In this document: positions 14,237 to 14,839 of the stretch, in pieces
Position numbering within the stretch: position 1 is the first letter of the stretch
How the letters are laid out: each line of letters starts with the position of its first letter
Source of the DNA: Escherichia coli
GTDB taxonomy: Bacteria; Pseudomonadota; Gammaproteobacteria; Enterobacterales; Enterobacteriaceae
Strand: one strand, 5' to 3'
DNA: 64,000 bases
Assembly (NCBI RefSeq): GCF_002854065.1
Contig: NZ_CP024147.1
Position numbers and translations under genes: made by a program
The notes under the pieces: model-generated
Databases searched by the model: none
What the model was told of the DNA's origin: nothing
Seen by the model: only the letters and a program-made list of their open reading frames with translations

Positions 14237-14464
14237 ATGCGTTTAATTGTGGTGAGCATCATGGTGACCTTGCTGAGTGGCTGTGGCAGCATCATTAGCC
14301 GCACTATACCGGGGCAGGGGCATGGCAACCAATATTATCCCGGTGTGCAATGGGATGTGCGTGACTCCGCCTGGCGTTATGTCACAATCCTTGATCTGCC
14401 ATTCTCCCTGGTTTTTGATACTTTACTGCTGCCGATCGACATTCATCATGGCCCGTATGAGTGA
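14237..14464 (+). CDS. yceK: Lipoprotein YceK, 75 aa
   Basis: Lipobox LLSGC; length and synteny. Confidence 0.85.
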   Translation: MRLIVVSIMVTLLSGCGSIISRTIPGQGHGNQYYPGVQWDVRDSAWRYVTILDLPFSLVFDTLLLPIDIHHGPYE

Positions 14465-14839
14465 TTAACGTTCATCCCACTCATCAGCTGCTGCGCGTCC
14501 TTCCTCGGTATCCAGCGGTGGCTCAAGCTGAAATTCCCCCTCGTCCCATTCATGTAATGTATTCTCTTCCTGCCACTCCTGGCGGATCTCTATCTCATCA
14601 TAGTCGCCATCAAAAACACTTTGCGCGGCTTCACCGCTAAGCATAGGTAAACATTCACCTTCTTCCCCTTCGTCGGCAAAAAACTCAACTTGCCACATGA
14701 TGTCGCCGTCCTGCAAAACGTATTTTTGGGCATTGAACTGTTGCACATTCGCGTCTTCGGCGTCGATGCCGGGGTTGTCTGCAAGAAATTCTTCGCGTGC
14801 AGCGTCAATGGCTTCTTCAAGCGTTGCGTACATGGTCAT
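14465..14839 (-). CDS. msyB: Acidic protein MsyB, 124 aa
   Basis: Highly acidic translation MTMYATLEEAIDAAREEFL...; convergent with yceK, stop codons abut. Confidence 0.9.
   Translation of the reverse strand: MTMYATLEEAIDAAREEFLADNPGIDAEDANVQQFNAQKYVLQDGDIMWQVEFFADEGEEGECLPMLSGEAAQSVFDGDYDEIEIRQEWQEENTLHEWDEGEFQLEPPLDTEEGRAAADEWDER

Follow-up and report, generated by a model that had tools for sequence, protein, structure and literature searches.

The convergent genes yceK and msyB of Escherichia coli abut stop codon to stop codon with no nucleotide between them, and what has been conserved at this junction across the Enterobacteriaceae is the absence of a spacer, not any particular sequence. 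We think it probable that the two genes form a convergent pair that is compacted to the maximum and goes back to the ancestor of the family, with each terminator placed inside or beyond the partner gene: the yceK RNA would be terminated by Rho within msyB, the msyB RNA would run on to a hairpin upstream of yceK, and the resulting overlap would be mainly a tolerated by-product of the arrangement. The overlap of the two transcripts is already present in the literature (PMC12288877), and the arrangement is an ordinary one. To this we add the family-wide conservation of a zero or near-zero spacer, the acidic partner gene as the source of a Rho-loading tract, a conserved bidirectional hairpin as the likely msyB terminator and, by implication, the location of yceK inside the 3' UTR of msyB.

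A conserved junction without a spacer

The window, by which we mean the whole 64-kb stretch of E. coli DNA that was analysed, carries the gene order csg-opgGH-yceK-msyB-mdtG-lpxL…flg…rne of the E. coli chromosome, and the region is found in 5423 of 5426 complete E. coli genomes. The yceK coding sequence (14237..14464, + strand; ORF list, RefSeq annotation and Pfam PF07119) specifies a DUF1375/YceK-YidQ lipoprotein of 75 aa with the sequence MRLIVVSIMVTLLSGC, which contains the lipobox LLSGC (L-S-G-C) and matches PF07119 at 33 bits against a Pfam gathering cut-off of 20.3. On the opposite strand, msyB (14465..14839, − strand; ORF list, RefSeq and Pfam) encodes the 124-aa acidic protein MsyB, whose match to PF13984 covers profile positions 1-122 of 122 at 227 bits, above the gathering score. 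Its open reading frame extends over 14465..14842 (−) in the ORF list and its RefSeq start is the ATG at 14839. Asp or Glu account for 38 of its 124 residues (31%), giving a pI of 4.05. An earlier note on this DNA had called msyB an acidic stress-associated gene; the gene is named for its acidic protein and has been reported to respond only modestly to acid itself.

The same note had stated that the two stop codons touch, and the sequence, the ORF list and the RefSeq annotation all agree with it. The yceK stop is the TGA at 14462-14464 and the msyB stop is a TAA (TTA on the + strand) at 14465-14467, so that plus-strand positions 14456-14469, read directly, are tat gag TGA|TTA ac, and the junction of the two stops (14462..14467) contains 0 nt between them. 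RefSeq gives exactly adjoining coordinates both in a strain whose sequence here is the same and in MG1655, where yceK occupies 1113579-1113806 and msyB 1113807-1114181 (a gap-free conversion, in which the window position equals the MG1655 position minus 1099342).

We located the yceK orthologue and both stop codons in 80 species-representative MsyB loci from GTDB genomes of Enterobacteriaceae. In 78 of the 80, yceK lies convergent to msyB and directly after it, with 0-28 nt separating the stops. The gap is exactly 0 nt in 44 of these 78 species, a group that includes Escherichia, Salmonella, most Citrobacter, Phytobacter, Kosakonia, Leclercia, Kluyvera, Pseudescherichia, Pseudocitrobacter and Silvania. 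Gaps of 1 nt (5 species), 3 nt (9), 4 nt (1), 6 nt (9) and 7 nt (7) account for most of the remainder, and the longest are of 10, 27 and 28 nt (1 species each). Neither overlapping stops nor a terminator-sized gap occurs in any of the 78 species, and the two longer gaps of 27-28 nt (loci L070 and L082), read by eye, contain no credible hairpin. The stop codons themselves vary between species (TAA, TAG, TGA), and the synonymous sites beside both stops vary freely. Since the spacer is absent or tiny across all 78 species, the arrangement is ancestral to the Enterobacteriaceae. A gap of exactly zero has no visible special status, as particular small gaps typify particular clades: 6-7 nt in Enterobacter, 3 nt in Cedecea and 1 nt in Atlantibacter. 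Very short convergent spacers are also unremarkable in this neighbourhood: over the first 50 kb of the window there are seven convergent pairs, with gaps of 0, 7, 39, 41, 63, 111 and 194 nt.

Two loci lack an intact yceK. In Enterobacter asburiae INSAq146 (locus L046), msyB is followed only by the last codons of yceK (…HGPYE*) and then by unrelated sequence, the remnant region lying at about 2873-2990 of that locus. In Enterobacteriaceae RIT714 (locus L058) there is no trace of yceK, and an AT-rich segment follows msyB (L058 2873-2985).

The junction carries no terminator of its own. A terminator consensus scan of 14222-14990 on both strands returned none; the first 106 nt past yceK (14455-14560, +) fold no better than shuffled sequences (z −0.76); the stretch past the msyB stop (14370-14475, −) folds more weakly than shuffles (z +2.1); and no Rfam family scores above threshold over the junction. 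A 6-bp inverted repeat spanning the junction (tgagtg/cactca) was considered and set aside, being not significant and a product of the Glu codons on both sides. The earlier note had argued that there is no room for terminators between the genes, and a hairpin with a U-run follows neither stop. It had further posed antisense overlap and termination inside the partner as alternatives. These turn out to be one and the same, and both parts hold: where nothing separates the stops, a transcript long enough to contain the stop codon of its gene cannot avoid running into the partner. The structural half of that interpretation is thus correct, and logically forced.

Probable termination of the yceK-sense RNA within msyB

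Past the yceK stop, the yceK-sense RNA would be untranslated and antisense to msyB, and its composition is extreme. Over 14465..14706 (+), which we propose on this basis as a rut region, the RNA is C-rich and G-poor (34% C, 17% G; C/G about 2.05-2.08). The C/G of 2.08 at 14465-14704 ranks at the 99.99th percentile when every 240-nt window of the 64 kb is counted on both strands, and the GC skew runs from −0.22 to −0.36 over 14400 to 14750. The property is shared by all 78 species, in which the C/G of the tract ranges from 1.50 to 2.14 with a median of 1.76. Its origin lies in the acidity of MsyB, as GAN codons read NTC on the other strand, leaving the RNA antisense to msyB rich in C and poor in G. 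Consistent with this, the tract lies opposite the C-terminal two thirds of MsyB, its acidic portion (residues 46-124, 35% Asp+Glu), and it stops at about 14705, where that portion meets the rest of the protein.

Rho is accepted to load on untranslated RNA that is rich in C and poor in G (PMC7815308), and a Rho termination region has been published at this place. Adams et al. (2021; PMC7815308, Supp. file 2) report a + strand region antisense to msyB peaking at MG1655 1114048, which is window position 14706, with a Rho score of 5.3 (p 4e-7). Mapped to the window, the peak falls inside msyB, 242 nt beyond the yceK stop; the scoring uses 800-nt windows, so the termination position is approximate, and the data come from a genome-wide screen, not a targeted assay. 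DirectRNA-seq reads upstream and downstream of the site number 74 and 11 in untreated cells versus 87 and 69 with bicyclomycin (PMC7815308), some of which signal could come from + strand transcripts other than that of yceK. The region therefore combines two marks of a Rho-dependent terminator: an untranslated tract, rich in C and poor in G and at least some 80 nt long, that precedes the zone where termination occurs, and read-through when Rho is inhibited. On the reading that we favour, Rho would load on the tract and terminate the yceK RNA roughly 240 nt into it, within msyB.

Termination of this kind in a convergent gene is familiar (Peters et al. 2012; Adams et al. 2021). As at the published sites, C-rich untranslated RNA follows the stop codon and read-through is sensitive to bicyclomycin, and the 'antisense' class to which such sites belong makes up 51.5% of Rho regions (PMC7815308). 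We see no essential difference between yceK and these known antisense sites; what is distinctive here is that the rut-like composition is supplied by a very acidic partner, from the first base after the stop. Rho regions on the + strand have also been mapped antisense to csgG, yceI and flgN (PMC7815308), which are the partners in three other convergent pairs of the window. Rho termination inside the convergent partner is thus a common pattern that is not peculiar to yceK.

The hairpin upstream of yceK and the msyB-sense RNA

A hairpin flanked by an A-tract and, on its opposite side, by a T-tract (14187..14221, both strands; identified by folding and by comparison of the 78 species) lies immediately upstream of yceK. 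Its core is CCGGC-GTTAT-GCCGG at 14197-14211; as RNA it reads AAUAAAAAUA-CCGGC-GUUAU-GCCGG-UAUUUUUUUA, with a U-tract in both directions, and it folds on the two strands at −18.8 and −19.0 kcal/mol (z −3.4 and −3.7). On the + strand it is the terminator of opgH (mdoH), and on the − strand it is the first terminator-shaped element that msyB-sense RNA would reach. All 78 species have it, 20-76 nt before the yceK ATG. The stem covaries (CCGGC/GCCGG versus CCGAC/GTCGG in the Cedecea group, with a third variant in Atlantibacter) while the loops vary freely. The T-tail is present in 78 of 78 species and the A-head (at least 6 of 10) in 60; since the other 18 lack a good A-tract, the hairpin may not terminate msyB RNA in every species. 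With a G+C-rich hairpin and a U-tract on both strands, the element has the A-tract, hairpin and T-tract shape of bidirectional intrinsic terminators, and this shape is conserved. Unlike typical members of that class, it lies upstream of yceK and not between the convergent genes, and from this position it could act on msyB RNA only once the polymerase has crossed yceK from end to end in the antisense direction.

The same hairpin seems to stand between yceK and its supply of transcripts. Its last G-C pair is 25 nt before the yceK ATG, a scan of 13800-15300 found no promoter-like sites, and a sigma-70 promoter for yceK between hairpin and ATG was rejected as a candidate, the 25 nt being too short and the scan showing none. 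With no room for a promoter and none found, yceK seems dependent on RNA that passes the hairpin. Transcripts spanning opgH and yceK, that is, hairpin read-through, are present in SMRT-Cappable-seq data (PMC6131387), and yceK-sense RNA would arise at least partly in this way. Expression of yceK thus appears to rely on read-through of a strong-looking terminator, in an attenuator-like arrangement.

Transcription of msyB has a published start at MG1655 1114212, window position 14870 (SMRT-Cappable-seq Supp. Data 2, PMC6131387), and a long lpxL-mdtG-msyB transcript begins at 1116706 (PMC6131387). Upstream of the former start, the motif TTGCAA-N15-gCTATCCT (14870..14905 with the start site, − strand) resembles a sigma-S promoter and probably serves as one. 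Sigma-S promoters typically have a C beside the −10 element, and its presence beside the msyB −10 is consistent with reports that the gene is induced by RpoS. The msyB-sense RNA may therefore start either at this sigma-S-like promoter or at the upstream lpxL-mdtG promoter.

Beyond the msyB stop there would be little to halt this RNA before the hairpin. No terminator follows the stop, and the composition is weakly rut-like: the C/G is 0.9, not rut-like, over the first 115 nt and a moderately rut-like 1.43 over the next 129 nt. The RNA would be expected to cross all 228 nt of yceK antisense and to end at the conserved bidirectional hairpin. We infer that msyB mRNA probably ends near 14188-14190, which would give it a 3' UTR over all of yceK and a predicted length of about 680 nt from the start site. 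Earlier action by Rho is hardly possible before the C-richer second half of yceK, so the overlap would be extensive either way. Between the hairpin at one end and the Rho region at the other, the yceK and msyB mRNAs may be complementary over up to about 500 nt. The RIT714 locus, from which yceK is missing, provides a natural control: its msyB is followed about 50 nt after the stop by its own 14-bp hairpin with a U-rich tail, which fits this expectation.

Published 3'-end data say little about this prediction. The curated Term-seq list of Adams et al. (PMC7815308) contains no 3' end on either strand in MG1655 1113400-1114399, a silence that is uninformative because the list also lacks the obvious opgH terminator. 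The TERMITe supplements likewise give no 3' end at the locus, and the SMRT-Cappable-seq lists contain no transcript end there (PMC6131387). One observation counts against the hairpin as the end of the msyB RNA. The Rfam ES036 (CssrF) sRNA family matches 14096-14138 (−) at 47.9 bits, against a gathering score of 37.6, just past the hairpin in the msyB direction, in the spacer between opgH and yceK; no other Rfam match exceeds its threshold. The match hints at some − strand RNA beyond the hairpin, of which it could be a read-through or processing product; a literature search on ES036/CssrF returned only unrelated papers. The match is flanked by a pair of oppositely oriented REP-like elements (tgcctgatgcgctacgcttatcaggcctac and gtaggttaggtaaggcgttcgcgtcgcatctggca), which occupy 14072-14175 between the opgH stop and the hairpin, and over both of which Rfam naRNA4 (REP-derived) gives weak, sub-threshold matches.

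Co-expression and possible consequences of overlap

Whether the overlap of the two transcripts has a regulatory function is a separate matter from its existence. The pair appears in Table 1 of ExcludonFinder as one of 165 convergent excludons of MG1655 (PMC12288877), a listing that requires overlapping coverage in 50% or more of the 58 transcriptomes. As in convergent excludons generally (the concept of Sesto et al.; E. coli map in PMC12288877), the 3' ends of the neighbours' transcripts overlap here, as the zero gap, the listing and the Rho region inside msyB all attest; the intergenic distance is 0 nt against a class mean of 95 nt (PMC12288877). The class, however, is defined by opposing or mutually exclusive expression, whereas yceK and msyB are co-induced in bulk data. 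Both have been reported to be induced by RpoS. When LolCDE is inhibited they rise together, by about 4-fold and 8-fold respectively (bulk RNA-seq with a directional library kit), and they belong to a set of just seven genes that changed with both perfluorinated acids. In Salmonella, a yceK::lacZ fusion validated induction by bile, under conditions that also induce the RpoS regulon. The bulk pattern is therefore one of positive co-variation, which argues against strong mutual exclusion and is at the same time compatible with interference inside single cells.

A functional excludon, in which the obligatory 3' overlap itself regulates and the more strongly transcribed gene (probably msyB) lowers the other, strikes us as unlikely. 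It could operate by RNase III cleavage of the duplex, by the msyB 3' UTR covering the ribosome-binding site of yceK, or by polymerase collisions. The presence of the pair in the ExcludonFinder core list and the lower single-cell co-expression of excludon pairs as a class (both PMC12288877) speak for it, as do the tight arrangement conserved across the family and the complementarity that msyB RNA, should it reach the hairpin, would have to the whole yceK mRNA, including the start region. Set against these are the RpoS induction of both genes, the parallel shifts in their transcripts that two independent bulk studies saw, and the response of the yceK::lacZ fusion to bile under RpoS-inducing conditions. 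Conservation of a zero gap, moreover, is equally expected from deletion bias without any function, and the synonymous sites next to both stops vary freely. Mutual antisense interference between the two genes, which the earlier note had suggested, found no support in the data consulted here.

A more specific and rather doubtful version places YceK under the control of msyB. Here the conserved msyB 3' UTR of ~280 nt, perfectly antisense to the entire yceK mRNA and sharing its terminator with opgH, would let RpoS-driven msyB transcription set the level of YceK, whether by duplex formation, by RNase III cleavage or by masking of the yceK start, while yceK itself would be fed only by leakage through the hairpin. 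If this were so, yceK would be a gene nested in the msyB 3' UTR, a single bidirectional terminator would control it from either end, and the Enterobacteriaceae as a family would have retained this layout; the locus would become a modestly interesting example of cis-antisense control.

Collision-driven bidirectional termination at the boundary (Ju et al. 2019; Wang et al. 2022), which would keep either transcript from extending far into its partner, is very improbable here. The pair is convergent and, like the overlapping bidirectional terminators of that class, has no classical terminators at its boundary; such terminators are reported to govern hundreds of E. coli genes and to act independently of Rho (bioRxiv 10.1101/2022.10.23.513370). 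Yet the model needs a hairpin-forming overlap element at the boundary to set the point of collision, where both flanks fold no better than shuffles, and the + strand read-through at this locus is sensitive to bicyclomycin and thus Rho-dependent. Collision also works best at high polymerase traffic, and both genes are only modestly expressed. Lastly, the suspicion that one of the open reading frames is unreal or ends elsewhere, making the abutment an illusion, draws on the shortness of yceK (75 aa) and its modest Pfam match (33 bits), and is effectively refuted by the conservation of YceK (…HGPYE*) and MsyB (…DEWDER*) to the last residue in 78 species at 76-97% and 83-99% identity respectively, together with the YceK lipobox and the 227-bit match of MsyB.

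We accordingly return to the compacted ancestral pair as the probable explanation. Because both genes are switched on together by RpoS-type stress, the overlap is better regarded as a tolerated by-product than as a dedicated switch, and we infer that it lacks a strong regulatory consequence. The locus illustrates how compact bacterial genomes manage without intergenic terminators, and has little importance beyond itself: a convergent partner encoding an acidic protein automatically provides a Rho-loading antisense strand, and the terminator of a third gene can serve in the other direction. There are also practical implications for work on either gene. Unstranded RNA-seq, like deletions or insertions made in yceK or msyB, will alter how strongly the neighbour seems to be expressed, or its 3' UTR.

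Several other features of the window were recorded. The convergent pair clsC-mdoC (opgC), with 7 nt between its stops (8434-8442), is in the ExcludonFinder list, as is murJ-flgN, with a 39-nt gap (PMC12288877). A copy of IS1 at 2941-3710 splits csgD, the master regulator of curli and biofilm formation, and this strain is probably curli-negative. Strain CUWW06, which is 99.99% identical to the window over positions 1-18887, is correspondingly annotated with two csgD pseudogene fragments around an IS1B transposase. A second IS1 copy at 18888-19657, 99.9% identical to the one in csgD and absent from CUWW06, lies by its coordinates inside yceI (18559-19134 in the uninterrupted strain).
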